Source: an uncultured archaeon
GTDB lineage: Archaea; Asgardarchaeota; Thorarchaeia; Thorarchaeales; Thorarchaeaceae
Reading direction: 5' to 3'
Assembly: GCA_964558645.1 (NCBI GenBank)
Contig: CAZLEV010000002.1
Coordinates: forward strand, 345,350-409,349
DNA: 64,000 bases
Positions 9,956-29,691 of this stretch are shown piece by piece; the stretch's first letter is position 1; every line of letters begins with the position of its first letter. Below the pieces are notes generated by a model. That model was not told where the DNA came from. It made no database searches and saw only the letters and a list, made by a program, of their open reading frames with translations. The position numbers and the translations under genes are program-made.

Positions 9956-10798
9956 TTGATGGAAATCAGGCCGATGGAGAAGAAAGATATTCCTTTTGCA
10001 GTGGGGCTGACAACCTCAGAGGGCTGGTCAAGCATTCCTTTGGATTTTGAGGCTCTTGTGAGTTATCATCCCACTGCTGCGTTTGTGGCTGAGAGAAGAA
10101 GCGAGAGACTCGGCATGGTGAGTGCAGTCTCATACGGCTCTTTTGGATTCATAGGGAATCTGATAGTAGAGAAGGAGCAGCGAAAAAGAGGGATAGGAAC
10201 CGACCTGATGAACCATGGAATAGACCACTTAGAACGGCTTGGCAATGCGAGTATCTTCCTTGATGCCGTGCAAGAAGCTCAGCCTCTCTATCAACAGCTG
10301 GGCTTCAGACGCCTCTGCGAGTCTATGCGCTTTAGTGGCTGCATCCAGTGCAAACAGGACAGGAGTACAAGAGTCATCCAGAACCAAGACACTACCTCCA
10401 TCTTCAACATGGACAGGAGAGCCTTTGGAGCTGACAGGAGCTTCTTCCTTATGAATACTCTACAGCATCATCGTAGTACCTGCAAAGTAGCAGTTGATGA
10501 TAAGGGAGTGAGAGGATACTGCCTAGCCGTCCAAACTCCGGACTGGCTGAAGATTGGGCCTCTCATAGTTGAAGAGGACGCCGATGTTGTTGGAAATCTG
10601 TTGAGAGCGCTGCTTGAAGACTGGAAGACTGCACGAGTAAAGGTTGGTGTCCTAGAGGAGAACACCGAGGCAGTCAAGCTCTACCGAAGTATTGGGCTTC
10701 AAGAAGCATCTCCGTCGATTCGGATGATAAGAGGCGAACAAGTCCCTGAGAGAAAACACGGTAACGAGTTTGCCATTGGTTCGCCTGCAAAGGGGTAG
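9956..10798 (+). CDS. Tandem GNAT N-acetyltransferase
   Basis: QRKRGIGTDL acetyl-CoA motif A, LYQQLGF and LYRSIGL. Confidence 0.88.
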   Translation: MMEIRPMEKKDIPFAVGLTTSEGWSSIPLDFEALVSYHPTAAFVAERRSERLGMVSAVSYGSFGFIGNLIVEKEQRKRGIGTDLMNHGIDHLERLGNASIFLDAVQEAQPLYQQLGFRRLCESMRFSGCIQCKQDRSTRVIQNQDTTSIFNMDRRAFGADRSFFLMNTLQHHRSTCKVAVDDKGVRGYCLAVQTPDWLKIGPLIVEEDADVVGNLLRALLEDWKTARVKVGVLEENTEAVKLYRSIGLQEASPSIRMIRGEQVPERKHGNEFAIGSPAKG

Positions 10799-11050
10799 CA
10801 GACAGAGAGTAACCAACAGAACAGAAGCTTGGAGTATCGCAGCTCGAACAGTCAGCTACAGTAACGAGCAACATAGCTGAAACTGAAAGGCAGACAGACC
10901 TGAACAGATCCGTGGTCTCGGAGATTCGTTCAGATGCCATTGTGCAGAAGTATCAGTCTACTATCCAGGATTGGCCAGTTCGCAGCGAACAGCGGGCAGA
11001 TCCCATCATCGGTATCAGTGAGAATTAGCAGAAAATATTGATAGAAGTAC

Positions 11051-11173
11051 TCAAGTGGCTTCCCACGCGAGTACTTCTTCGCGGGTGATTATGTCTTCAT
11101 GACGTTCTGAGGGAGAGCCGTGCTCTTCTTGGGCAAATGCTCTCATTTGATCAATATCGTTATTCAAGGTCAT
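11051..11173 (-). CDS. 40-aa acidic micro-ORF, fourth gene of the micropeptide cluster
   Basis: ATG directly after the TAG of the upstream ORF; MTLNNDIDQMRAFAQEEHGSPSERHEDIITREEVLAWEAT*. Confidence 0.45.
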   Translation of the reverse strand: MTLNNDIDQMRAFAQEEHGSPSERHEDIITREEVLAWEAT

Positions 11174-11266
11174 CTACCTGTATAGATACGAGTAAGCAAG
11201 CGCCCGTGTTGACACTTCCATTCTATCCTTCTTTGATCCAGTTACACAGTCATTGTTGGTGGTCAA
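11174..11266 (-). CDS. 30-aa micropeptide, paralog 3
   Basis: TTG start after AGGAGG; MTTNNDCVTGSKKDRMEVSTRALAYSYLYR*. Confidence 0.65.
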   Translation of the reverse strand: MTTNNDCVTGSKKDRMEVSTRALAYSYLYR

Positions 11267-11271
11267 TTCAT

Positions 11272-11370
11272 TTACCTCCTGTATGCAAATGCATAGCCTA
11301 CAGCCTCAGTTGAAACAGCTCTGACTCTGTTCATCTTTGCGTCGGACTCGTTTCTTGTGAAATATGCCAA
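11272..11370 (-). CDS. 32-aa micropeptide, paralog 2
   Basis: TTG start 8 nt after GGAGGT; MAYFTRNESDAKMNRVRAVSTEAVGYAFAYRR*. Confidence 0.65.
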   Translation of the reverse strand: MAYFTRNESDAKMNRVRAVSTEAVGYAFAYRR

Positions 11371-11376
11371 CTACTA

Positions 11377-11481
11377 CTACCTCCGGTATACATAGGCGTA
11401 GGCAACAGCCTCGGCCTTCATCATTCGCGAGTCCAGATTCTTTCCAAGGGATTCCTTTCTAGTGTTCTTTGCTAATGCCAT
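11377..11481 (-). CDS. 34-aa micropeptide, paralog 1
   Basis: ATG with GGTGA SD 6 nt upstream; MALAKNTRKESLGKNLDSRMMKAEAVAYAYVYRR*, followed by TAGTAGTAG. Confidence 0.7.
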   Translation of the reverse strand: MALAKNTRKESLGKNLDSRMMKAEAVAYAYVYRR

Positions 11482-11496
11482 TGTTTTTCACCGTTT

Positions 11497-11560
11497 TAGT
11501 TTGTCAAACAAACTATTCTTACAGTATTAGTTGTGTACCTTTACCAATATAAAGGTTTGC
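11497..11560 (-). promoter_or_regulatory. BRE/TATA promoter of the micropeptide operon with two palindromic operator candidates
   Basis: Minus-strand GCAAACCTTTATATT (11560-11546); inverted repeats ACCTTTA-N6-TAAAGGT (11537-11556, overlaps the TATA box) and TAGTTTGT-N3-ACAAACTA (11497-11515). Confidence 0.55.
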
Positions 11561-11963
11561 CTTCCAAACTATATATGCCTATTTTGGTGTATCTGATGCA
11601 CTTTAAGCATGTTGTGCATTTATGCATGGAACTGAACCTTGAACTGTCTGCAACCCCACAATCAATTAGACGTTCCAAGCACTATGTGAATCATCAGCAC
11701 TCTCTGTCGCGCATCAGACTTGAGAGTGACAGAGATTTCGACTCGTCACGAAATGACACTACTCCACAGAACTGTCTAGATGTGCAAGAAGGGCGGAATC
11801 AGTTTGGTCTAGGATCAGCTTCTTCGCAGAGTGGCTTGCGATTGAGAACCAACACCACTTAGGTCGTGCCGCCCTCCCAGATGCAAGGGAGGAGGACATT
11901 CACGTATTGCCCTTCAAGATATGGTTTATCGAATCAACTGGTAGGTGCTAGATAGTTTTATAC

Positions 11964-11978
11964 GCAAACGTTTATATT
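11964..11978 (+). promoter_or_regulatory. BRE/TATA promoter candidate for the ArsR-type regulator
   Basis: GCAAACGTTTATATT, 14/15 identical to the divergent micropeptide promoter. Confidence 0.5.
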
Positions 11979-12044: not shown

Positions 12045-12794
12045 ATGAATGAAGAAGAAATCACCGACTCGCTAAAGAGCGCGGATGAGATTGAGTTCTA
12101 CGACAAGGGAAAAATCCAGAACGAGCTCATATTTATCACGCATGATGATAAGATGCAGGCTCTAGACGACCCTGTCCGGTTAACCATAGTCACCGTTCTT
12201 CGCAAAGGCGTCCCTGACACCCTTACCACAAAGAGGGTAGATGAGAAAACAGGGGATACAATCATACGACAACGCGAAGTGCAGCGTCATGCACTATCTG
12301 TAGTTGAAATAGTCAAGATGTCACAGGAACATGCCGATGTGGAAGAGATAACAAAGAACCAAGTCTATCACCATCTTCCAAAGCTTGAAGACGCCGGTCT
12401 GGTTGTGAAATATTGCACAGCAAGAACTGGGAAGCGAACTACGGACTATTATCGACGTACAGCCAAGGGCTTTGTGATTGCTGCCGGCTTTCTATCAGCT
12501 GACAAGAAGCAGCGAGAAAATAAATTGGAACTGCTCGTTGAGAGACTCGACAAGGTTTTCGGGGTAGAACTCTCCAAGGAGGAGGCTCAGGAAGTGGAGC
12601 GCCTCATAAGAGAGGAATGGGAGATTGAAGCCAAGGGACGGTCCAAAGTTGCAAACATGATTCGCGGGGACGTTGTGGACAGCGACGTTCTCGACCTGTA
12701 CGGTTACCTTGTCGATTTGTGGTCCCTAAAGGATGAGCGGCTTCTTGAGATCAAGGAGAAGCTACGAGCCATAGTCTTCTCTGACAGCGAGTGA
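12045..12794 (+). CDS. ArsR-family winged helix transcriptional regulator with C-terminal helical domain
   Basis: ALDDPVRLTIV, NQVYHHLPKLEDAGLV, DYYRRTAK wing; GGTGA SD. Confidence 0.8.
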   Translation: MNEEEITDSLKSADEIEFYDKGKIQNELIFITHDDKMQALDDPVRLTIVTVLRKGVPDTLTTKRVDEKTGDTIIRQREVQRHALSVVEIVKMSQEHADVEEITKNQVYHHLPKLEDAGLVVKYCTARTGKRTTDYYRRTAKGFVIAAGFLSADKKQRENKLELLVERLDKVFGVELSKEEAQEVERLIREEWEIEAKGRSKVANMIRGDVVDSDVLDLYGYLVDLWSLKDERLLEIKEKLRAIVFSDSE

Positions 12795-13156: not shown

Positions 13157-13528
13157 TCACATGATGCCCTTGAGTGCAAGGGCGGTCATCTCAAGGTCTA
13201 TGATTGCCAAGGCGGGAACCGCACTTCCATCAACCCAAGCAATGACCCATGTGTCGCCGATGACCTGCGCCATCATCAAATGTCCTTTCTTATCACCTGC
13301 AGTTCCGGCATAACGATTTTCATCGTCTATCACGGTGCTGTATTCGGTGTCACCCAGTGTGATGTGCGATCCGGTCCTCAAGGAGTCACGAATCTGTTCA
13401 ATCTCGCCTACCAGGTTCCAGTTGGATGTCTGCCATATTACCGTTGAGTCGGTACTCACTGCAAACGCTTGGAATTTCGAGTTGTTGTGGTATAGAGAGT
13501 TCCAAGCCTTGTCGATAGTTGACTCCAA
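13157..13528 (-). CDS. Asgard profilin-like protein (paralog B)
   Basis: 123 aa; VIWQTSNWNL, ITLGDTEYSTV, GHLMMA, WVIAW; aligns by eye with the upstream paralog and the profilin topology. Confidence 0.7.
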   Translation of the reverse strand: MESTIDKAWNSLYHNNSKFQAFAVSTDSTVIWQTSNWNLVGEIEQIRDSLRTGSHITLGDTEYSTVIDDENRYAGTAGDKKGHLMMAQVIGDTWVIAWVDGSAVPALAIIDLEMTALALKGIM

Positions 13529-13618
13529 GTTTCATCCCCAGGGGATATTATGTTCAGTATTGAAGGGAATTGGAAACGCATTCCACGAGAAGGAATCTAG
13601 CCCGAGAAGCACTCGAAA

Positions 13619-13999
13619 CTAGATTTTCCCTTTGAGGGCCTTGGCTGCACGATCTACGTCAACGTAGATCCCATCAGGTGATGCATTGGGGTCAGCCCAT
13701 GCGACCACAAACTTCTCACCCTCAATCTTCGCCAACACAAGGATACCATTCCCAGAAACGCTTCGAGCAACCAAGCTGTCTGGCGTTGTCCTGAGTGTGC
13801 TATATTTGACTTGGTTCTGAACCACCGAAGTGGCATTGTTCTTGACAGCCGAACCTAGGGCTGCAGCGTCCTCTGCTAGGTCCCAATTGTCGCTCTGCCA
13901 TAACACGTTACCTGATGTGGTTATTACACCGAAGGCCTGAACCATCTCTTTCGAGTCGTTGTATGCTTGCGTATATGCTTCCATAACTGGATCTGCCAT
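13619..13999 (-). CDS. Asgard profilin-like protein (paralog A)
   Basis: 126 aa; GVITTSGNVLWQSDNWDL, VKYSTLRTTPDSLVARSVSGNG resemble the conserved Asgard profilin pattern. Confidence 0.8.
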   Translation of the reverse strand: MADPVMEAYTQAYNDSKEMVQAFGVITTSGNVLWQSDNWDLAEDAAALGSAVKNNATSVVQNQVKYSTLRTTPDSLVARSVSGNGILVLAKIEGEKFVVAWADPNASPDGIYVDVDRAAKALKGKI

Positions 14000-17725: not shown

Positions 17726-19099
17726 TCAACGCTTGTATGTTTCTTCTAGAGCCCTGTCCCATTCGTCCTCCCCATCCTTCAGTCTGCTCTTGCGTGCTTC
17801 AGCACGTTCCCTTCTAGACTTGGCAGCTTCTCTTCTCCTCTTCTTGATCTTCTCTTCGCGCTTCTTGCTGAGAGACTCTTCTTCTTCGGACACAACGCGT
17901 TTTGCTTCCTCTCTCTTGGTCATCCAGCTGATGACCATCGCGGCAAAGACAAAAGTAAGGGTTGCGGGTACTAGGAACAGGAGGACAATCTCTGGTTGGA
18001 GAAGCTCGGCGCTATTCTCAATTCCCGGGGGCAATGATAGGATTTGTACAAAGATGTTAGGGCTCATCAAGAGGAATGAGAGCGCAACTACTGCCAAGAA
18101 ACGAATCGCAGACCCCATCAAGGTGGATGATACAACATATCCCACAGAGGGGGCTGCAGCTCTCGCAGTCAATTCGTTCTTAGCATTCGGGTCCTCATTC
18201 AGTAACTCATCTATGAAGATCTGCAGACGGCGTACATCACTGATGGCATCCAAGTTCTCCAAGGCACTGGTACCACCCGCAACCTTTCTCTCGATTGCCT
18301 CTCTCAGGAAAGAAAAGGCCGTTGCTCCTGTGGTTCGACTCATGGCAGAATGGGAAGCGATGTCTCCGCGCTCAATGGCGCTCTGTTTCTTGGTGGCAGA
18401 CCTCAGAGCGAGCAATTGCTTCTTGAGGGTTTCCTCCCGGTCTTCCACGGGTTTCCCCACAGAATGGCTGTAGATCATCTGGTAGCTAATCTCAAGATAT
18501 GCAAATGAAACAAGAACAAGGATTTGAAGCTCAGAAGTGACGAACTCAACAAAATCCGTGGGGAATAGAGCGTAATCATAGATTGGCAATTCTCGGAATG
18601 CAGCCACAATCAGGATGGCTTGTATTGATACAAAGGCGGCACCAACAAACTTGTGCTCCATTCTGACCAGTGACTGAAGGAAGAACGCAATACCCAAGGC
18701 TGCAAATAGGAAGTACAGAAAAGTGAATGTGCTATCGTAAAGCTCAAGGGCTATTGACATGATATTGCCAGCAAATGAGATGAACACCTCATTCACATTG
18801 GTGACTGGATCTGTTATCGCATAAGGCTGGAGATACCACATTCGAAGAATTATGGTATTATACAGACCGCTGAGAAGAGTGTTCAGGCTCTGACCTCCTG
18901 TGAATATGGCACCCAATCCATTCACAATCAAGACAGCAACGAAGAAGACGATAAAGGAGAGCAGTCGAAATACAGTTACTATGAAGATGTAAGGAGCATC
19001 CCAGTCCCAATAACCTGACAGAAGCGAATAGACGGTATACGCCATGATTGAGAACATGATTATAGACAGGATTCGGAGAACCCAAGTAACAACCTTCAA
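17726..19099 (-). CDS. Polytopic membrane protein of the MoxR operon, hypothetical
   Basis: Several TM helices, charged C-terminal tail; overlaps the DUF58 stop. Confidence 0.7.
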   Translation of the reverse strand: MKVVTWVLRILSIIMFSIMAYTVYSLLSGYWDWDAPYIFIVTVFRLLSFIVFFVAVLIVNGLGAIFTGGQSLNTLLSGLYNTIILRMWYLQPYAITDPVTNVNEVFISFAGNIMSIALELYDSTFTFLYFLFAALGIAFFLQSLVRMEHKFVGAAFVSIQAILIVAAFRELPIYDYALFPTDFVEFVTSELQILVLVSFAYLEISYQMIYSHSVGKPVEDREETLKKQLLALRSATKKQSAIERGDIASHSAMSRTTGATAFSFLREAIERKVAGGTSALENLDAISDVRRLQIFIDELLNEDPNAKNELTARAAAPSVGYVVSSTLMGSAIRFLAVVALSFLLMSPNIFVQILSLPPGIENSAELLQPEIVLLFLVPATLTFVFAAMVISWMTKREEAKRVVSEEEESLSKKREEKIKKRRREAAKSRRERAEARKSRLKDGEDEWDRALEETYKR

Positions 19100-20448
19100 A
19101 ACAGAGCAACCCCCCGTTGCTTGGCAAGATTATACTGTCGGATGATTGTGGGTAGAAAATCTTCGGGGCCGACGTTCACAACCTCTATTCCAAACCTCGC
19201 CAGAGCTCTGGCAATCTTCCTTCTCCGTTCCCACAGCTCCTCAGAAACAGCCTCAGCAAGGACCTTCTCGACTGGACCAAACTGGCCCACCGGAGCCTCA
19301 AACCACGGTCCGAAGGGACTGATGACCTGAGCCTTATGACCATTGGCAACAACAGCCTTCATGGCATTCAAAAGGGGAGCCGGACTCTCCTCAAGGTCTG
19401 TAAGAAATATGAAGAGGGTGCGTTTCCTCGTGTTCTCAATCACATGTGCTACTGCATTCTCATAGTCGCTCCATCCCGTCGGCTCGGCCATTGCAAGTGC
19501 CTCAAGTACATCATACATATGATTGGGCTTCAAACTAGGCTTCACATAGGAGTGGACAATGTCAGAGAATATACAGGCCCCAATGAGGTCCTTGCGCTCT
19601 AGACCCATGTAGGTGAGAAGCACAGCCGCCCGGATGGCATACTCAAGTTTTGTGTTATCTGGATAGCCATTTCCCATGCTACCCGATGTGTCAATCATGC
19701 AGACAACCTGAACATTCTTCTCCATCTCGTACTGCTTCACGATGAGATTGCCACGCTTTGCACTGGTCTTCCAGTCAATCTTGCGGAATGCGTCACCTGG
19801 AGTATACGGTCGAAAGCCAGCAAAATCAGTCCCCATTCCGACCACCCTTGTTCGGTGCGCACCAAACATCAGTCCAAGCTGTCTCTGTTTTCCCAGAGAC
19901 TCCATCCGCCGTACATCTTTCCAAGTGGGATACACCAGAATCTCGGTCTCGGCCTCAAGAGTCCGGGTATAGTAGTGAAACCCAAGTCGGTCACGCATCA
20001 CAACCTCGGTGGGTCCCAAGTAGTATCTGCCGCGGTTCTTCGCCTGTAGAATATACGAGAAGGTTATGCTGCTTCCGGGTTCTATTCTAGAAGCCATGAA
20101 ATTCTCACCAATGGCCAGAATCCATGTCTCGGGATATCTATCCCATACCTCAATGAAGTCGAAGTGTCGTCTTGACTTGTTCCGAATGGTGACCCTCACC
20201 CTCAGAAAATCACCTGAGAATACCTTTACTTTGTCGACCTTTCGATCCACTTCAATACCAGAGATGTTCGCAGTAGTCGCAAATAGAGGTAAGGTAACAA
20301 CTAAGCCTACAATGAGATATACTCCTAGGGTGGTCAAGTAGAAGTTCGAAAACGCAAATCCACTTGTGAGGAGTAGAACTCCTGCAAAGACAACCACGAA
20401 ACCTCTCTCTGTAATCACTTTGGACCTTCTCCAGAACAATCCACACAT
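19096..20448 (-). CDS. DUF58 (vWA-containing) protein
   Basis: FRPYTPGDAFRKIDWKTSAK, MIDAS DTSGS, FLTD. Confidence 0.9.
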   Translation of the reverse strand: MCGLFWRRSKVITERGFVVVFAGVLLLTSGFAFSNFYLTTLGVYLIVGLVVTLPLFATTANISGIEVDRKVDKVKVFSGDFLRVRVTIRNKSRRHFDFIEVWDRYPETWILAIGENFMASRIEPGSSITFSYILQAKNRGRYYLGPTEVVMRDRLGFHYYTRTLEAETEILVYPTWKDVRRMESLGKQRQLGLMFGAHRTRVVGMGTDFAGFRPYTPGDAFRKIDWKTSAKRGNLIVKQYEMEKNVQVVCMIDTSGSMGNGYPDNTKLEYAIRAAVLLTYMGLERKDLIGACIFSDIVHSYVKPSLKPNHMYDVLEALAMAEPTGWSDYENAVAHVIENTRKRTLFIFLTDLEESPAPLLNAMKAVVANGHKAQVISPFGPWFEAPVGQFGPVEKVLAEAVSEELWERRRKIARALARFGIEVVNVGPEDFLPTIIRQYNLAKQRGVALF

Positions 20449-20449
20449 A

Positions 20450-21436
20450 CTATCTTGGACAATCCACTTCTCCCAGAATCTTTGAAACTAGCCTTTCAAC
20501 TGTGAGGCCCTCGAGTTCAGCCTCAGGCTTTAGCATCAAGCGATGATTCATAGTCTGCACACAGAGCCTGCGTACATCCTCGGGGATAACGTAGTTCCTG
20601 CCTTGCATAGCAGCCCGAGCCTTGGAGGCGTTCATGAGAACCAGTGAGGCCCGCGGAGAGCCCCCAAGCAGTATCTGAGGATCATTTCGCGTTCTAACTA
20701 CAATATCACGAATGTACTCTATGATATCCTCGTCGATGAAGACCGTCTTGCATGTGTTCTGCATCTTTATGATGGTTTCCGGATTCGCCAGAACCCTCAG
20801 ATTCTCAGCTTCGCCAAGATGTTTTCGACGGATGACTTCAGCTTCTTCCGTTCCCGTTGGATAGTCTAGTACAAGTCTGAACATAAACCGATCCAGCTGT
20901 GCCTCTGGGAGCGGATAAGTACCCTCCTGCTCCACCGGATTCTGGGTGGCGATGATGAGGAAAGGCTTCGGTAGTGGGCGTGTGACCCCCTCTATGGATA
21001 CTTGGCGCTCCTCCATCACTTCCAGTAGAGCACTCTGCGATTTTGGTGGGCAACGATTAATCTCGTCCGCCAACACCAGATTTGCAAACACAGGGCCCTT
21101 TCGGAACCAGAACTCGCCTGTACTTTGATTGAAGACATTGCTGCCAAGCAAGTCTGCAGGCAGTGTGTCCACAGTGAGCTGAATCCGTCTAAACTCGCAT
21201 CCTAGAATAGATGCAAATGTGCGGGCCATGTACGTCTTAGCCAACCCCGGAACGCCCTCCAGTACAACATGGCCGTTGGACAGCATTGCAATCAGGCAAT
21301 CCGTCAGTATGTCGGTCTTGCCAACAATGATCCGCTGCACTTCCCGTATTATCTCAGTAGTCAAATCGTGTACCTCTTCGATACTCAGCATCTCCGACGT
21401 TCCACCTATCTGCCCACTTGTTTCGTCAACTGTCAT
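20450..21436 (-). CDS. moxR: MoxR family AAA+ ATPase
   Basis: Walker A GVPGLAKT, LADEINR, ATQNPVEQEGTYPLPEAQLDRF. Confidence 0.95.
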   Translation of the reverse strand: MTVDETSGQIGGTSEMLSIEEVHDLTTEIIREVQRIIVGKTDILTDCLIAMLSNGHVVLEGVPGLAKTYMARTFASILGCEFRRIQLTVDTLPADLLGSNVFNQSTGEFWFRKGPVFANLVLADEINRCPPKSQSALLEVMEERQVSIEGVTRPLPKPFLIIATQNPVEQEGTYPLPEAQLDRFMFRLVLDYPTGTEEAEVIRRKHLGEAENLRVLANPETIIKMQNTCKTVFIDEDIIEYIRDIVVRTRNDPQILLGGSPRASLVLMNASKARAAMQGRNYVIPEDVRRLCVQTMNHRLMLKPEAELEGLTVERLVSKILGEVDCPR

Positions 21437-21447
21437 TTCGTGTTACC

Positions 21448-22848
21448 TCACCTTTTTGCATTGATAAGTTTAGATTCGATGTTTCTTACAAAGAAGAAGA
21501 TCTCCATCATCTCATTCTCACCAATCTTCATATCTGGATTGGATGAGATCTCTTCGATTCGCTCGATTTTCTCGAAGAAGTGTTCTTGCTTCAGTTTAGG
21601 ATCTTTATGTTTCATCATCTCCCAGACTCCATGTGGGTCATACTTCGTCCACATATTCTTCTTCATGATGTCCCGACGCAGTTTCCGGTATATCATCTTC
21701 ACAACTCGGGCATAGTTACCCTCATGTCTGTAATAGGACATTCTCTCACTGAAATACGTCTGACCCTTGCGCATGAAGACTTCCGAAACGGCCTTGACCT
21801 CAGGTTTCTTCATGTCAGGAAGATACTTCCTGATTCCCACAGCTGTGACAAGGGGGTACAGGGCCGAGAAATATGGCATTGTTGAAAGCCAGAAGGCCCG
21901 TGCTAGATAGAGACCATAGAAAAACTCCGCAGAGGTTGGGGGTACTTCTAGCAGATGCTCACAGAATACTATCGGAATACTGGCATTACCCCGAGACAAC
22001 CACCGAACGGTATTGCTCGCAAAACGAGCATTGTCTGGCCATAGCCCGATCATGTCATTTGTAAACACACTTGGATCGCTCACAGCGACAATTCTACCTG
22101 TCACCGATGACGCACCGCCAAATCCAAGGTCTATTGCTCCAACAACAGGAAGAGAGCCATTCCATTCTCCCTCACTGGGCCAGGGGTCCTCCTTCTCAAT
22201 ATCAGTTTCACACCACGCACGTTCGGTGGTCCATGCTATACCTGCCAGCCCCAAGGCTGAGCGCGGACTGAGGGCTGTGGCCCAGTTTAGATGCAGACTG
22301 TTCACCCCTTGAGTCAGAGCACCTCCATCGAGTCCTGGCCGCAAGTCAGTTATGACAGGGAGTTTCGGGCTCTTGTCATAGGAATCAAGATCGAGAAGAA
22401 CACCGCCAGTGAATGACAATATGCCACTGACAGGAAACGGACTCGAATCGCCCCATGCATTGGAGATCAGAGTATTTAGCAGGAAGAATGAGTTGTTTGC
22501 AGTACCAAAGTCGTCTGCAATAAGCACGCTGCCGCCTGCCATCAGGTGATCGAATAGAACGAGTACTGCGTCAACACTGAAGTCACGAACTGGCCCCATA
22601 ATCACGAGGACCGCATCACCTTCGTATCGAGTAATCACACTCATAGAAGACTGAATTGCGTGTGTCTCATGCCCTTGCGCCTCTATCTGTTCTCTGAAGC
22701 TGCTTAGGCCATTCCAGTCTTCGTTGTAGATTCCAAAGTCTTGAGGATACGTTTCCGTGACATCAAACGCAGTAGTCGCAACTAACATGCCTACGGGAAA
22801 CCAGGCAAATACGAACAGTATCATCCAGAGTCCGTCTTTCCAGCCCAT
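21448..22848 (-). CDS. DUF4350 domain membrane protein
   Basis: YNEDWNGLS, GGSVLIADDFG, VSDPSVFTNDMI; typical MoxR operon member. Confidence 0.78.
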   Translation of the reverse strand: MGWKDGLWMILFVFAWFPVGMLVATTAFDVTETYPQDFGIYNEDWNGLSSFREQIEAQGHETHAIQSSMSVITRYEGDAVLVIMGPVRDFSVDAVLVLFDHLMAGGSVLIADDFGTANNSFFLLNTLISNAWGDSSPFPVSGILSFTGGVLLDLDSYDKSPKLPVITDLRPGLDGGALTQGVNSLHLNWATALSPRSALGLAGIAWTTERAWCETDIEKEDPWPSEGEWNGSLPVVGAIDLGFGGASSVTGRIVAVSDPSVFTNDMIGLWPDNARFASNTVRWLSRGNASIPIVFCEHLLEVPPTSAEFFYGLYLARAFWLSTMPYFSALYPLVTAVGIRKYLPDMKKPEVKAVSEVFMRKGQTYFSERMSYYRHEGNYARVVKMIYRKLRRDIMKKNMWTKYDPHGVWEMMKHKDPKLKQEHFFEKIERIEEISSNPDMKIGENEMMEIFFFVRNIESKLINAKR

Positions 22849-22881
22849 TAGTATTCACATCATTGGTCGACTCATATTCAT

Positions 22882-25800
22882 CTACTCGGACATTGCTCCA
22901 ACATCTATTCGGGGATAGATATCGGTGAATATACGGACTGCCTCCTCATACTGCTCTCTGGACATCTCGGACCCCGAGAACCGCGCCTCTTCGTAGATAT
23001 ACATGAACTGCTCCGCGTCGGCACTGTCCAAGGGGAGAGATTTGAGAACTCTGTCGAGGTATTCTCGAGCGGTCTCGGAGGCAAGTCGTTCCGAACCTAT
23101 TTTCATTCCGCACATCTGTTCAAAAGTTCTGTACGCAAGTGTGATAGATTGGCCGTACTTACCTGCACCTGCGAGTTTCTTGATATTGCGGAGCTTACTT
23201 GGTATGTCCATTCCCGTTCTCTTTGTGGGACTTCTGAACATTCCCTTCACATAGTATAGGTACAGAAGCACAACAATCACTGCTCCAGCAAGTGCTATGC
23301 TCGGTACCAAAATGTCAATCAGACTTTGCATGAAACCACCTGTATTGGTTTGAATTTGAAGTGTATAAGACCCAACGGTCATGTTATTGGCATCGGAAAG
23401 AATCGTGATTGTGTAAGTGATAGATCCATTCCCTAGTTGCCCTAACCATCTGTGACTGAAGTTCCCGTTGTCATCGGTGACGGCAGTTTCCTCGCGACCC
23501 CCGATGGAAATCACCAACGTACGCCCAGCAATCGGCAACCTCGTACTGCCGCCATCATTGTACAATGTGCCGCTGATTATCAAGTCGTTCCCGTATTGGA
23601 TGCGTTCAGGGGTTGCGTTATCAAGATCTGCGCCTATGAAGACATGAATCGCCCCGGTAGACTGAGCCTCATCACCGTTGATGAAACCTCCACCATCATA
23701 TGCAATATTCACAAAATAGAGTCCACTGGCGCCTGACCAGTCAAGAGGAATGGTGATAGTAATGGTCGTCCAGTTCGGGGAATTAATGCGTCGACTGCCC
23801 AATTCGGTGTCGTTGAGAAACAAGAGCACAGTGCCATCGATTGCATTACCATCTTCGTCGAGAAGACGGATAACGATCCGAATCGTTTCTCCAGGCATGA
23901 CGTCTTCGTTGGTCAGTAGGTCTACAGACAGCTCAGAACGTAGATGTATCTCAACGGTCCAGAAATCAGGACTACTCTCAACATCAACAAGTGAGGACTC
24001 GGCAGTCACGGTTATCTCGTAGATGGCCGGCTGTGCATCTTGGGGAATAATAATGTCAATTGAGAACTCGCCAGCAGTGTCAGTCACGGCGCTCTGACCC
24101 GTGGATGATCCATTTGCATAGACCAAGATGGTTATGTCAACGGCGGCGCCCCCCTCATTGGAGGCTGTTCCAGTGATAGTCAGGGTATCACCGCGCTCCA
24201 ATGTGAAGACTGATTGTTCATCGAGAGTTATCACAACGAGGTCGCGGACCTGCAAGATTTGAGGAGAGGTCTGGGCATCTTCATAGGCATCTGATGGAGA
24301 AACAAACGTGACAACAAAGGGCACCTCCCCCAACCAGTGATCCCATGGAATTTCAAATGAAAGGGTGAAACCTCCACTACTATTTGTGGGCGATGTGGCC
24401 TCCACAGAGCCATCCCAGACAAGTTCGACAGTGTAGCCAACCATGGCGCTTCCGTTTCCAAAGGACAATGTGCCCGTTACAATCACGTCTTCTCCCCGGT
24501 AGAGTGAAGTGGAAATAGAATCGGCTGCGATTGTAACTGGAATGAGCTGGATATCGACAGACATAGAGTCAGACTGGCTCGGACTCACGAAAGAATCAGG
24601 AGGTAGACAATACGCCCAGACGATTGTTGTGCCTAGTGGTGTGGTGCTATCCAGTGTGAAGACATACTGGAAGACTCCATTGATATCTGTCTGCACGGTC
24701 CCGAGGAGGATCTGACCTTCTGCATCAGACGAATGATCCCAGTAGACATCGACATCAACGAAGCCATAGGGAGTTCCGTTATCCAGAACCATTGTGCCGG
24801 TAATATTGAGCGAGTGCTCCCGATATACAACAGAGGGTGTGGCCTCAATCGTCCAGACAATGGTCATGGCACTGATATTGAGAGTGCTCACATCAGACGT
24901 GGTACCTGCAATCCAGTTCTCCGTCGGTTGGAGTTCGATCCAGATGTCATAGATGCCTGGGCTCGTCGATTGTGGAATCTGCCATTGAATGTAGAAGTAG
25001 CCATCAGGGTCCGTTGAAACTGTGCCGACATTGTTGCCATCGAAGATAATCTGTAAGGTCGCATTTGCATATGGGACATCCGTGCCAGATAGGTCGTAGA
25101 AGAGGGTACCATTCAAGGGAATGTAATCGCTGATGTAATAGTCCGTAGAACCTCCTGTCATGAATCCGCTGATCAGGGTCTGCCACTGCTCAAGTTGGAG
25201 AGGCTCATGGATCGACTCGTTGGTAGACAGGAGAAGCGTACCTGCAAAGGTTCCGTATATCTCGATTCCGGTCCATTGTGTGTGCTCCTGAAAGCCCGTG
25301 TAGTTGAGGGTGTGCTCGCCATTCTCATCAGTCAAGATCCAGCCTATCGCATATTCGGTTCCGTTATACCACCATATAGTCACATTCTCGCCCGAGATAT
25401 CTGTTCCATTGGAGAAGTAGAGATGAACATAGATTGACAGAGACTCATTGAGTTTGACAGAGCTGGAGCTGATGCTGATGTCCAGATTCACCAGGTATCT
25501 CTGAGCGTTCACTGTAATCAGGGAGCTCGTGGCATTGGCATCAAGAGGGCTTGTGCTTGTGTAGTTGCACTTGAAGTCGTACAATCCCTCACTCTGGTCA
25601 CCAAGCGTGAAATCATAGAGGTAACGAAAACCTCCCGAAGAGTTTGTCTGGACCGTATCAAGAAGAACCCAAGTACCGCTCTCAAAGAGATAGATTCGAA
25701 CATCGGCTTCTGTGAGTGGTGGAGTACCGCTGCTGTATGTCAGATTCCCTTGGATAACGAGAGTTTCATCCAGATAGACTGCTCCGGGAACGTCCATGCT

Positions 25801-28800
25801 GAAAGTGGGCTGATACAGAACTAAATCGAAACCGACACCGGGCGTGGATGACGCATTGTCCCAGAGCGCCTCGGTCGATGTATACTCCGCCCAGACGGTG
25901 ACAGCACCAGGAGAGTCATTGGCGGGAGAGCAGGTATAGAAGAAATTGAAGAATCCGGATGAGTTAGTCGTCAGTCCATGATACGAGTCTATTGTCCCGT
26001 CCCCCCAGTCCCAGTAGAGTGTCACATTCTCCCCGGCTACTTCAGTACCGTCCAGAAAGGCAAGTTGACCGTATACCCAGACTGTTTCATTCAGATGATA
26101 GGATGTCGAGTTTACGCTGGTGGTCAGAGTCAGCTCATAGGGAATAAGATCCACATCGCGGTTCGCAGACTGAGCATCCGCCCATAGATCAGGTTTGCTA
26201 CTGTTATACGATGCCCACAGGCGCACGGTCTCGAAACTGTCAGTCCCGACGCTTAGATTGTAGAAAAAGGTGAAAGCGCCGGCACTGTCTGTCAGTCTTG
26301 TGAAGTGATATGTCGATGTGGAGTTTTGGTAGGATATGGTGATTGTTGCACCAGAGATAGGAGCACCGTTCTCATCGAAGGTCAGAGTGCCGGAGAACGT
26401 TATTATTTCATCGAGATGATACTCAGTACTATCGGTGTTAGCATTCAGGTTCAGCTGATACAGCTGAAGCGTAATAGCAGGAGTAAGAGTGCTGCTGGAA
26501 TTGCCATACAGCCGACTCCAAGAAGTGAAAGCAACAGTGAGATTCACAGTACTGGGGCCATCAGAGGTGTCAAGCTCGTACGTGAAGTTGTACCAGCCAG
26601 TTGAATTTGTGAGTCGCTGAAATGACTGTTGAAGGGTGCCGTTGTCCCAGTAGATATCAATTGTAGCACCGGAGATTGCGGTCCCGTTTGTGAACTGAAG
26701 TTGCCCCCAGATATACGCGGTCTCATTGAGATGGTAATAGGTGCTGTTTGAGAAGACAGAAACTGCCGTCGGATAGTAAGTGACCGTGATAGGGACATTA
26801 TCTGATATGTCATCAGCGAAGACATCAGAGTCAGGGGCAAATTCTGCCCAGATACTGAAGGTCTCATATCCATGGTCGAAGGGGATCTGATGGGTGAACT
26901 GGTACTGACGGTTTCCCCCGTCCGTCAACACAACTGTCAGATTATGCGGGCCCGTGCTATTGCCCCACCAGATTGTGACAGGTACACCTCCCAAGAGGGC
27001 GCCCATCTCAGGAACTGAAACATTCCCTGTGATATTCACATATTCAAGCGGATGAAGCGTCGATTCATCAACATCTATCAACACTTCGGTGGTCCATTTC
27101 TCAACTGAGATTGTCATATTAGATGAACGACTGCCATCATATTCTGGATCCGACGAGATGAACTCAGACCAGTAGGTCACAGGACCAAGATAACCCACCG
27201 GTACTGTGTAGTTCAGTTCGTAATAGCCGCCATCTGTTGTATCCACTGTCCCAATCAACTGAGGGGTGGTTCCATTGTCCCAGTAGATATCAACTTCCTG
27301 ACCAACAAGGCCAGAACCATTGAGAACATCTGTCAGATAGCCAAAGATTGTGATATTCTGGTAGGGATGGACTACTTCTGGGGCTCGTGGTGTTGAATCT
27401 ATCGTGAGACTGCTTGCACGAATAGTGACTTCAATCTGAACTGTATTACTCCAGTTTCCAAGAATGCCTGACAGGGTAGCTGTCCAGTTGGCCACAGCAT
27501 CATAGGTACCTGTTTCTTGCCCAGCTGGGATGGCATAAGAACCACTGAAGCCACCAGTAGAGTTGGTCAAGTCGGAGTCTACTAACACCCCATCAAAGAA
27601 CATGTTGATGGTTTCGAAACTAAGAGGGGTGCCATTGAGCATCTCGGCACTTCCATCGTAGAGAAGGACAGCACCGGGATATGCACTTGTGGGTGTCACG
27701 GTGAGAGCGATCTCTATCTTCCCCCAGAGGGTGATTGTGGAGTTTTCTGCCGAACGTGCTGGAAGGAGGATCGGGATTCCCTCTTCGTTGTATTCTCCCG
27801 CATAGCTTGACCATACCTCATGTGGACCCGGCGCCATACGAGGGGCATTGGGGTCGACGAATATGTCAAGTTCATACGTGCCGTCCGCTTGGATTGTGGC
27901 ATTGCCCATCCATGTTTCGTCCCACATGATCTGCATCTGGTCGTTGTTCAGGGTTGTCCCATCTACCGGTTCTCCCCCCACCGTCATGAGCCCATGGGCA
28001 TGTACGGTATCCTCCCAAGCTCCGGTGTAATTGTCCAGACCCAGTTTGAGGTTCATATCTATCGTTTCGGCAGGGGAGAAGACAGCATCGGAAGATGAAG
28101 AGATGGGTTGCAGAGGATCCGGCTGAGCGACAACATAAAGCAGAGTAAAGTTTCGAACATCATAGGTTGGGGCGTGGTATGTGGCAGTGATGTTGTGGAG
28201 GCCAGGAGTTGCTCCCGGTTCATAGGTATAGGTGATATTTGCGAGAGGTAACGTTGAGCCCTGCTCAATCATCGTACTACCCAACAGCATGTTATCAGTC
28301 AAATCACGAAAGACAATGAACTCTGATGTGGAGACAGGGACATAGTCAACCATGAGGAGGGCACTCAGAGTGAATTCATCGCCTATCTCTACCCAACCTT
28401 CTGGAACATTCGCCCAGACCCATAGCTGAACATCCCCTTGTTCTACATTCTCGGGTATCTCATCTCCACCCATGTCAGGAGGGAGGGGGATTGGAAGTAT
28501 CTGTCGCCATTCTCCACCTTCTGACGAGTCAGACATAGGGATGAAGACTTCGGCCCAGAACATCATGTGCTTCACCTTGAGAACACGATAGCCGTCCTGT
28601 GCATCACCGATTGCATAGCCCTTTGCGATCCGTGCAGGGATATCCAGGTATCGCATGAAGACGCAATATGCGGTGGCAAAGTCCATGGGTAAACCACCAC
28701 CTCGTTCCAAGAACCAATCAGTGACTTCTTGGTCTGAATCTGGACGTTCAAAGACCTCTGGTTCCTCGATCATGAGTTCGAACGTGCTCCGGAAGTAGCT

Positions 28801-29691
28801 TTCGACAACGGATGCAGTCTGAAAAGCATTATCGCCAACGTCCTCAAACTGAGTGATGTTGTCAATAACCCTTGTTGTCAACGATAGGCCAGCAAGAGTG
28901 GGAAGACCATATGTGTTGCGAATAGAGACCGGTGCTAGACTGCCTTCTAGAGCGCTTGCGGCCATATTGGCGAGATCTTGCTGCTCAAAGGTAATCTCAT
29001 AGCTGATGAGAACATGCTCACCCGTCGGCGCCTCCAAGAGGGGACTGAAGAGCAGAGTACCATAGTCGTCCGTTTCTAGATCATACCGCACCAACCTGGA
29101 TTCTGCATCTGGCTGGTAGCTTCCGGCTTCAACATGTCCCGTTGTGAAGGAGTCTTCGATTACCAGGATTGCGGGAAAGAGGGTGGGTAGTTCTATCTCA
29201 CCAACATTGGGGCCTGCGGTCACGTTGATGACAACGGTGTATATCTCGTTACCAAAGACTTCTGCCTGAGATCGAGTGATGATCTCAGGTCCCACGTCAC
29301 GGATTGAGTCCCCCAGCGTCTTCCCCCAGCTCGAGCCGTCGTATTCGTCGTATGCACCAGTCCGCCAGAGCTGAGGGGGGTGGTCGGGATAGACGTAGAA
29401 GACCACGTCATCTAAGTGATCAAGAATGTCGGGGGGGAGCTCTTGGTCCATGGGAATGTCTGTGTAGTTGACATTCTCAAACCAGTTTGACTGCCCTCCA
29501 GCCCAGCTTATGTCATATGGCCAAGGAGTGACATCATCATACTGCTCATGTGGAGTATTCGTCCGAACTGCCCCCATCTGTATCACAATGAAGGTGTTTG
29601 CGGCCCATATGATTGTCAACAGAAGAAAGATAGAGCTGAGAATGGTTGTGATACCCATCTTACGTTTGGGCTTGACTTCGGCGGCACTCAC
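22882..29691 (-). CDS. 2269-aa surface protein: transglutaminase-like domain, many Ig-like beta repeats, C-terminal TM and DUF4129
   Basis: LWRTGAYDEYDGSSW, DFATAYCVFMRYLDIPARIAKGY, repeated TNSSGGF/TDxxG beta units, SETAREY...YEEARFS. Confidence 0.85.
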   Translation of the reverse strand: MSAAEVKPKRKMGITTILSSIFLLLTIIWAANTFIVIQMGAVRTNTPHEQYDDVTPWPYDISWAGGQSNWFENVNYTDIPMDQELPPDILDHLDDVVFYVYPDHPPQLWRTGAYDEYDGSSWGKTLGDSIRDVGPEIITRSQAEVFGNEIYTVVINVTAGPNVGEIELPTLFPAILVIEDSFTTGHVEAGSYQPDAESRLVRYDLETDDYGTLLFSPLLEAPTGEHVLISYEITFEQQDLANMAASALEGSLAPVSIRNTYGLPTLAGLSLTTRVIDNITQFEDVGDNAFQTASVVESYFRSTFELMIEEPEVFERPDSDQEVTDWFLERGGGLPMDFATAYCVFMRYLDIPARIAKGYAIGDAQDGYRVLKVKHMMFWAEVFIPMSDSSEGGEWRQILPIPLPPDMGGDEIPENVEQGDVQLWVWANVPEGWVEIGDEFTLSALLMVDYVPVSTSEFIVFRDLTDNMLLGSTMIEQGSTLPLANITYTYEPGATPGLHNITATYHAPTYDVRNFTLLYVVAQPDPLQPISSSSDAVFSPAETIDMNLKLGLDNYTGAWEDTVHAHGLMTVGGEPVDGTTLNNDQMQIMWDETWMGNATIQADGTYELDIFVDPNAPRMAPGPHEVWSSYAGEYNEEGIPILLPARSAENSTITLWGKIEIALTVTPTSAYPGAVLLYDGSAEMLNGTPLSFETINMFFDGVLVDSDLTNSTGGFSGSYAIPAGQETGTYDAVANWTATLSGILGNWSNTVQIEVTIRASSLTIDSTPRAPEVVHPYQNITIFGYLTDVLNGSGLVGQEVDIYWDNGTTPQLIGTVDTTDGGYYELNYTVPVGYLGPVTYWSEFISSDPEYDGSRSSNMTISVEKWTTEVLIDVDESTLHPLEYVNITGNVSVPEMGALLGGVPVTIWWGNSTGPHNLTVVLTDGGNRQYQFTHQIPFDHGYETFSIWAEFAPDSDVFADDISDNVPITVTYYPTAVSVFSNSTYYHLNETAYIWGQLQFTNGTAISGATIDIYWDNGTLQQSFQRLTNSTGWYNFTYELDTSDGPSTVNLTVAFTSWSRLYGNSSSTLTPAITLQLYQLNLNANTDSTEYHLDEIITFSGTLTFDENGAPISGATITISYQNSTSTYHFTRLTDSAGAFTFFYNLSVGTDSFETVRLWASYNSSKPDLWADAQSANRDVDLIPYELTLTTSVNSTSYHLNETVWVYGQLAFLDGTEVAGENVTLYWDWGDGTIDSYHGLTTNSSGFFNFFYTCSPANDSPGAVTVWAEYTSTEALWDNASSTPGVGFDLVLYQPTFSMDVPGAVYLDETLVIQGNLTYSSGTPPLTEADVRIYLFESGTWVLLDTVQTNSSGGFRYLYDFTLGDQSEGLYDFKCNYTSTSPLDANATSSLITVNAQRYLVNLDISISSSSVKLNESLSIYVHLYFSNGTDISGENVTIWWYNGTEYAIGWILTDENGEHTLNYTGFQEHTQWTGIEIYGTFAGTLLLSTNESIHEPLQLEQWQTLISGFMTGGSTDYYISDYIPLNGTLFYDLSGTDVPYANATLQIIFDGNNVGTVSTDPDGYFYIQWQIPQSTSPGIYDIWIELQPTENWIAGTTSDVSTLNISAMTIVWTIEATPSVVYREHSLNITGTMVLDNGTPYGFVDVDVYWDHSSDAEGQILLGTVQTDINGVFQYVFTLDSTTPLGTTIVWAYCLPPDSFVSPSQSDSMSVDIQLIPVTIAADSISTSLYRGEDVIVTGTLSFGNGSAMVGYTVELVWDGSVEATSPTNSSGGFTLSFEIPWDHWLGEVPFVVTFVSPSDAYEDAQTSPQILQVRDLVVITLDEQSVFTLERGDTLTITGTASNEGGAAVDITILVYANGSSTGQSAVTDTAGEFSIDIIIPQDAQPAIYEITVTAESSLVDVESSPDFWTVEIHLRSELSVDLLTNEDVMPGETIRIVIRLLDEDGNAIDGTVLLFLNDTELGSRRINSPNWTTITITIPLDWSGASGLYFVNIAYDGGGFINGDEAQSTGAIHVFIGADLDNATPERIQYGNDLIISGTLYNDGGSTRLPIAGRTLVISIGGREETAVTDDNGNFSHRWLGQLGNGSITYTITILSDANNMTVGSYTLQIQTNTGGFMQSLIDILVPSIALAGAVIVVLLYLYYVKGMFRSPTKRTGMDIPSKLRNIKKLAGAGKYGQSITLAYRTFEQMCGMKIGSERLASETAREYLDRVLKSLPLDSADAEQFMYIYEEARFSGSEMSREQYEEAVRIFTDIYPRIDVGAMSE

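Follow-up and report, generated by a model that had tools for sequence, protein, structure and literature searches.

This locus raises two questions: whether four very short open reading frames (ORFs) in a Thorarchaeota genome are genes and, if so, what their products do. The window analyzed here is the whole 64,000-nt stretch of one contig of this 3.6 Mb host genome. A preliminary description of the window had reported the ORFs as an operon of paralogous coding micropeptides, with possible signaling, proteasome-directed or RiPP-like roles; all four lie on the minus strand between positions 11051 and 11481, as it had reported (Table 1).

Table 1. Features of the peptide operon and its divergent regulator gene (positions in the window; ".", no strand assigned).
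Feature	Position	Strand	Remarks
Peptide P1 (ORF1)	11377..11481	-	34 aa, ATG start; basic; family core present
Extra family peptide (ORF2)	11272..11370	-	32 aa, TTG start
Peptide P2 (ORF3)	11174..11266	-	30 aa, TTG start; same core as P1
Peptide P3 (ORF4)	11051..11173	-	40 aa; acidic; separate family ending [ED]-E-V-L-x-[LW]-E-[APC]-T
Shine-Dalgarno GGTGA of P1	11488..11492	-	Sequence; conserved in relatives
Shine-Dalgarno GGAGGT inside the Arg-Arg-stop codons of P1	11379..11384	-	8 nt before ORF2 start; sequence, codon bias
Shine-Dalgarno GGAGGT inside the Arg-Arg-stop codons of ORF2	11274..11279	-	7 nt before P2 start; sequence
RNA hairpin	11044..11077	-	15-pair stem, one mismatch, GAAG loop; over P3 end, then T-rich tract
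TATA-like box of peptide operon	11546..11553	-	Sequence; conserved upstream in relatives; function inferred
Operator A site 1, GTTTG-N5-CAAAC	11555..11569	.	Directly upstream of TATA box (BRE position)
Operator A site 2, GTTTG-N5-CAAAC	11499..11513	.	Near expected transcription start
Operator A-like site, one mismatch	11955..11969	.	Before TATA-like box of regulator gene
ArsR-type winged-helix regulator, PH1932 homolog	12045..12794	+	Pfam HTH_20; PDB 1ULY E=6e-9; Foldseek 1e-8

Coding status and distribution of the peptides

P1, ORF2 and P2 belong to one family (P1/P2), the conserved part of which is an internal core of nine residues with the consensus S-T-x-A-[ILV]-x-[YHF]-A-[YF], followed by a short variable tail (108 distinct copies). 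Information in the core is codon-periodic, with 0.96, 1.26 and 0.34 bits at codon positions 1, 2 and 3, respectively. The core Ala is invariant (108/108) and is encoded by all four of its codons, the core Ser alternates between TCN and AGY codons among copies, and all three stop codons occur. Comparison with sister species whose DNA is 90% and 80% identical shows no indels across the 431-bp operon, against 4 and 16 gap columns, respectively, in the 200 bp downstream; the frames are intact at 80% identity, with no frame-disrupting variation in the homologous DNA. Relative to the 80%-identity genome (G002), the last 13 codons carry 9 synonymous and 7 nonsynonymous differences and the remaining codons 11 and 33, indicating that the N-terminal part evolves near-neutrally, although its length and basic charge are kept.

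These patterns bear on the idea of a structured non-coding RNA whose repeats merely resemble ORFs. Such an RNA would be in keeping with the conserved hairpin at the 3' end of the operon and with the folding of the whole region (z = -2.1); the free third codon positions, the switching of Ser codon families, the use of all three stops and the absence of any Rfam match make it the least credible of the explanations considered here. Metatranscriptome contigs from four runs of two salt-lake studies match within 11084-11448 at 97-99% identity, with neither strand nor level readable from them; the three variants listed are all at third positions, and two are synonymous. The RNA contigs did not span the flanking GNAT gene or intergenic DNA, which is not evidence of silence there. 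Together with the coupled ribosome-binding sites (Table 1) and the RNA contigs, these sequence comparisons indicate that the four ORFs are real coding genes that annotation has missed.

With a P1/P2 profile built from 21 peptides, relatives were detected in 82/86 genomes of a single Asgard family (Thorarchaeota) and in 0/191 searched genomes from other families of the Asgard phylum. The proposed operon of paralogous coding micropeptides is borne out by these profile relatives, as well as by the codon-periodic conservation. The host genome has five peptide loci with ten P1/P2 genes. The usual operon order is P1 (33-37 aa), P2 (27-32 aa), P3, a hairpin and a T-tract, and some operons have no third gene; most other loci carry two P1/P2 members, and ORF2 is a third member present in the genus of the window. 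No peptide match was found in Pfam, NCBIfam, PDB sequences, the ESM Atlas or Rfam, whereas a search of a 1.84-billion-sequence library gave 42 matches, all of 31-63 aa. Literature searches found no paper that describes the family. Thus, no database family, structure or paper that we found appears to cover these peptides.

Copies inside one genome are often each other's nearest relatives, with identities of up to 94-100% in genome G010. In that genome, promoter-plus-peptide cassettes at unrelated sites (L088, L093, L097, L104, and L105) are 85-100% identical and have a sharp 5' edge at the operator; these near-identical cassettes would reflect recent duplication or gene conversion. Other loci vary in content. 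In genus g3 (L021:2592-2681, minus strand; also L032), a 29-aa ORF rich in His, Cys, Tyr, and Asp precedes P1 and has the same Shine-Dalgarno overlap at its end. On contig C8 of the host genome (L065:1700-1850), a copy between SMC-cluster genes consists of a drifted P2 followed by what seems by eye to be the decayed start of a transporter gene (MFS3, see below), which is intact at the matching locus of genome G076.

Operon architecture, operators and linked genes

The conserved C-terminal Arg has an explanation at the DNA level. The terminal Arg codon is AGG in 107/129 peptides, compared with 17% of Arg codons genome-wide, and the residue is conserved because AGG, together with the preceding codon and the stop codon, spells the Shine-Dalgarno sequence of the next ORF. 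This bears directly on the suggestion in the preliminary description that the peptides open the 20S proteasome gate through a C-terminal HbYX motif, as in the tail of archaeal PAN. ORF3 of this genome does end in Leu-Tyr-Arg, but ORF1 and ORF2 fail the motif, only 18 of 132 distinct peptides comply (114 do not), and ORF3 orthologs have QYR, FRR or YNR as their last residues. Past the core, the tail varies in length and sequence, and the invariant residues lie 4-10 positions inside the C-terminus. No proteasome gene was seen at any peptide locus; elsewhere, the genome encodes a 405-aa AAA ATPase that has an HbYX end of its own. A proteasome role, whether opening or blocking the gate, is consequently very improbable.

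ORF4 fits the preliminary description by its position in the operon, but it belongs to a separate acidic family rather than being a fourth relative of ORF1-ORF3. The MTxNND start that it was said to share with ORF3 is lost in G002, and the most likely start of ORF4 is instead a TTG at 11167 (giving 38 aa), because a start 6 nt past the P2 stop is present in 35/45 P2-P3 junctions. The P2 stop is TAG in 35/45 of these junctions, and P3 is in frame with P2 in 36/45 (nine exceptions), compared with 21/67 for P1-P2 junctions; the fixed 6-nt spacer is sufficient to account for the in-frame arrangement. Pyrrolysine genes were sought with amber readthrough in mind, and no PylS or PylB above cut-off was found in five genomes. 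Two apparent P2-P3 fusion proteins (P0045 and P0047) are gene-caller artefacts, in which a TAG present in the DNA was read as Gln. P1 itself ends in three tandem TAG codons (11371-11379) in frame with ORF2, of which sister species keep one or two. The hairpin is itself conserved: 78% of cells pair, compared with 33-44% when the alignment is slid, and there are 20 double-sided changes, although relatedness of the sequences inflates the shuffle test. It is likely to be a 3' end or terminator element.

Upstream, the operon is divergent from the regulator gene (Table 1). This synteny with the ArsR gene, which the preliminary description had considered worth examining, is found in 28/30 genomes, where the peptide operon lies within 1.5 kb of the best ortholog of the regulator; the operon in the window is the near-universal copy of the family and is regarded here as its founder. 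This genome contains three exact copies of operator A, and two of these lie in the promoter of the peptide operon. Allowing up to one mismatch, it is found upstream of 28/30 regulator/peptide loci, 13/30 loci of the transporter gene MFS1 (in 11 of which a TATA-like box follows on the MFS1 strand), 1/28 bactofilin loci and 0/12 MFS3 loci, against 0.7% of random windows; these counts, like the operator and linkage counts that follow, come from kindred genomes and therefore reflect conservation, not independent events. We infer from gene linkage and site position that the regulator binds operator A. The operator A-like site before the regulator gene might allow autoregulation. A complex prediction for the regulator dimer with P1 (score 0.01, mark 0.32) speaks neither for nor against binding.

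Several further features were observed around the regulator. In G002 (L014:2100-14080), ~11 kb separates the peptide operon from the regulator, and both retain operator A sites; by eye, the insert contains a hydrogenase/heterodisulfide-reductase cluster and a chloride-channel-like gene. The regulator adjoins profilin-like genes in the window (13157-13999), and its paralog on contig C4 of the host genome (L068:1146-5236) adjoins gelsolin, an MFS gene and actin; these cytoskeletal neighbors may be a matter of synteny only. A 109-aa plus-strand ORF over the promoter (11533-11862) is absent from the long-ORF lists of sister genomes and is probably spurious. Elsewhere in the window (17726-29691), a MoxR AAA / vWA-type cluster with a 2269-aa transglutaminase-like surface protein is recognizable by eye.

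A second motif, operator B (GTCAC-N5-GTGAC, with further half-sites every 13 bp), has only six strong sites in this genome (scores 29-47; the next score is 14.6), located at four peptide operons, MFS1 and a gene for a 428-aa bactofilin-like protein. Operator B precedes the bactofilin-like gene at 28/28 loci that have upstream DNA (background 0.3%) and MFS1 at 16/30 loci, with peptides present at 12/30 MFS1 loci. Peptide genes lie directly upstream of MFS3 orthologs in 13/13 cases, usually with MFS3 a few bases past P2, where it occupies the P3 slot; among MFS3 paralogs (42-46%), upstream peptides occur in 0/4, a fifth being without upstream DNA. MFS3 matches DHA3/Mef/EntS-type efflux models, below the model cut-offs. 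The preliminary description had pointed to a nearby OPT peptide transporter gene; that gene lacks an operator site and, in two genera, is not among the neighbors, and the transporters tied to the peptides are instead these two MFS pumps, encoded elsewhere in the genomes. Peptide copy number may track MFS number: rho is 0.66 across genus means, and r is 0.44 (p 0.09) once genome size is allowed for. In G017 (genus g16, 95% complete), the regulator is present, and no peptide, MFS1, MFS3 or bactofilin-like match was found at the thresholds used; joint loss of the four in this one genome is possible. In G005 (L090:332-1438, minus strand), operator B lies upstream of a gene whose product, at least 369 aa long, matches nothing in Pfam or NCBIfam.

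Candidate roles of the peptides

The reading that we favor, at a probability of roughly 0.4, is that these are Thorarchaeota-specific, multi-copy, unmodified leaderless peptides, encoded in short operons with translational coupling, that would be exported by co-regulated MFS pumps. It is preferred because two unrelated efflux-type pumps are repeatedly coupled to the peptides by gene order and by both operators. By this mechanism, the regulator would bind operator A and repress the operon, as suggested by the sites that cover the BRE position and the start region, and a second factor, for which there are candidate paralogs, would act through operator B. Activity would reside in the C-terminal core (9-13 residues), with the basic N-terminal segment serving as a soluble spacer or pro-region. 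Either the whole peptides or just their cores would leave the cell via the MFS pumps, to function extracellularly as a signal or as a surface-active or matrix component, their release belonging to a program that would also change the cytoskeleton and raise the bactofilin-like polymer. Bactofilins shape cells in Haloferax (PMC11459167). A signaling or secreted role for the peptides is plausible.

Several points count against export. DHA3-type pumps are known for small molecules and are not known to carry 30-residue peptides. The host genome lacks an intact MFS3, and its MFS1 is no longer preceded by a peptide gene. No protease is consistently linked: an S41 peptidase, considered as a processing enzyme, was rejected, as it follows a peptide gene in only 1/5 loci. 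Shared regulation is no proof that the peptides are substrates of the pumps, and the counts come from genomes that are kin. The peptides are also hydrophilic over two thirds of their length, unlike phenol-soluble modulins (PSMs) or bacteriocins. A separate observation concerns genome G044 (L092), where a peptide gene, the S41 peptidase, a second promoter, a peptide gene and MFS1 follow one another, unlike the four other S41 loci.

The main rival, close behind export and itself tentative, is that these are intracellular small proteins whose core, as a short binding motif in helical or extended form, would dock into a partner; candidate partners are the C-terminal domain of the regulator, an MFS pump, the bactofilin-like polymer, the ribosome or nucleic acid. 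The peptides have no signal peptide. They are rich in Lys, Arg, Thr, Ser, and Asn, with hydrophobicity limited to the core. P1/P2 have a mean net charge of +5, compared with -2 for P3; the acidic P3 may partner the basic P1/P2. Side-chain size alternates strictly in the core, with aromatic residues at +6, +8, and +10 and small residues at +3, +5, and +7 (those at +3 and +7 being invariant); this alternation suits a strand, whereas AlphaFold models P1 as a helix, with pLDDT of 81-86 over the core. The close relatedness of same-genome copies resembles that of dosage-driven families, and on this account many copies would supply dosage in a stress or dormancy program, for which the strict co-regulation with the bactofilin-like gene also speaks. 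What an intracellular role leaves unexplained is the presence of two unrelated MFS genes behind the peptides, one of them directly in the P3 slot.

Modification has also to be weighed. The peptides could be RiPP precursors that an enzyme encoded at another site modifies in trans (e.g., by aromatic cross-links) before their export through the MFS pumps; some RiPP clusters typically combine spaced aromatic residues with MFS exporters. Convergent to the type A operon there is often a gene for a SAM methyltransferase or GNAT, but these convergent genes vary, and in the sister species G001 (L015:8610-9200, oriented) the GNAT gene (window 9956-10798) is broken and the peptides are intact. The preliminary description noted that no modifying enzyme adjoins the operon, which holds, and neither is there one beside the other loci, among the genes that carry operator A or B in the host genome, or downstream of 27 operator B sites in eight further genomes. 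Apart from a semi-conserved M-A-L in the N-terminal part, nothing resembling a conserved leader or cleavage motif is present. The RiPP idea is accordingly improbable.

A further alternative is that P1 and P2 are cis-acting leader or ribosome-arrest peptides that control translation of the third slot (P3 or MFS3). In its favor, conservation is limited to the last 13 codons, after a near-neutral N-terminal part of maintained length; each core region can fold over or beside the next Shine-Dalgarno, and a Mef-like pump lies downstream in some loci. The distance from core to stop, however, varies by up to 2-3 residues, the tails differ, most operons end in P3 and a hairpin without a larger gene, and some lack any third gene. 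We regard control in cis as improbable too.

If the favored export reading is extended, the locus could represent an Asgard-specific peptide signaling and differentiation circuit (MFS export, a PH1932-type sensor and a second regulator that couples the output of peptides to a bactofilin-like cytoskeleton), or the peptides could assemble on, or cap, this beta-helical polymer; both extensions are speculative and rather unlikely. Within the signaling circuit, a PH1932-type regulator acting as peptide receptor would be a class not described so far.

Related systems and biological meaning

A close parallel is the PSM/Pmt system of S. aureus (PMC5354552, PMC5080381), in which tandem short leaderless peptide genes likewise occur at several loci, modifying enzymes are absent and a dedicated exporter is under a repressor, as is proposed here; the PSM peptides release the repressor from the exporter operon (PMC5354552). 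The likeness to the PSM-PmtR-Pmt circuit would be one of logic, not ancestry. There is no sequence relation in Pfam, NCBIfam or PDB, and PSMs are amphipathic along their full length, whereas the thorarchaeal peptides are hydrophilic with a short aromatic core. Pmt is an ABC exporter rather than an MFS pump, and PmtR is a GntR regulator, unlike the ArsR/PH1932-type regulator here. In the thorarchaeal system, operator A is shared by the promoters of the peptides, the regulator and MFS1.

Among other systems, the multi-peptide leaderless bacteriocins, such as aureocin A70 and garvicin KS, are comparable in that one operon encodes three or four cationic homologs, each 30-34 aa long. They differ from the present family, which has no Pfam or NCBIfam match, is accompanied by neither an ABC exporter nor an immunity gene, is chromosomal, family-wide and multi-copy, and has N-terminal two thirds that are hydrophilic and near-neutral. 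SHP-Rgg and ComS-ComR, which belong to RRNPP-family peptide signaling, share a peptide gene divergent from its regulator, a conserved C-terminal core and an oligopeptide transporter nearby. In contrast to their TPR repeats, the regulator here has a PH1932-type helical domain; there are several peptides per operon, and the OPT gene, which lacks an operator, does not always lie nearby. The neighboring regulator is a homolog of Pyrococcus PH1932 (PDB 1ULY), and operators A and B share their 5-N5-5 geometry with that reported for Archaeoglobus HSR1 (CTAAC-N5-GTTAG; PMC9133787). The half-sites are different, and the regulons here comprise peptides, MFS pumps and the bactofilin-like gene instead of chaperones. 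The likeness to the HbYX tail of archaeal PAN lies in the Leu-Tyr-Arg ending of ORF3; in the family as a whole such an ending is not conserved, and the conserved motif is internal.

This analysis adds the motifs and regulons of operators A and B, the link to bactofilin, the numerical case against HbYX and the recognition that the P2-P3 fusions are false. Because the peptides can be synthesized, and the regulator and operators are accessible in vitro without culture, the question of their role is directly testable. Across a whole Asgard family, up to about a dozen peptide genes per genome have gone unannotated, and, with its two sharply defined operators, this is one of the rare Asgard regulons derived from sequence. 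Should the peptides prove to be exported, these relatives of the ancestor of eukaryotes would have a dedicated peptide system that acts between cells or at the surface and is linked to a cell-shape polymer.
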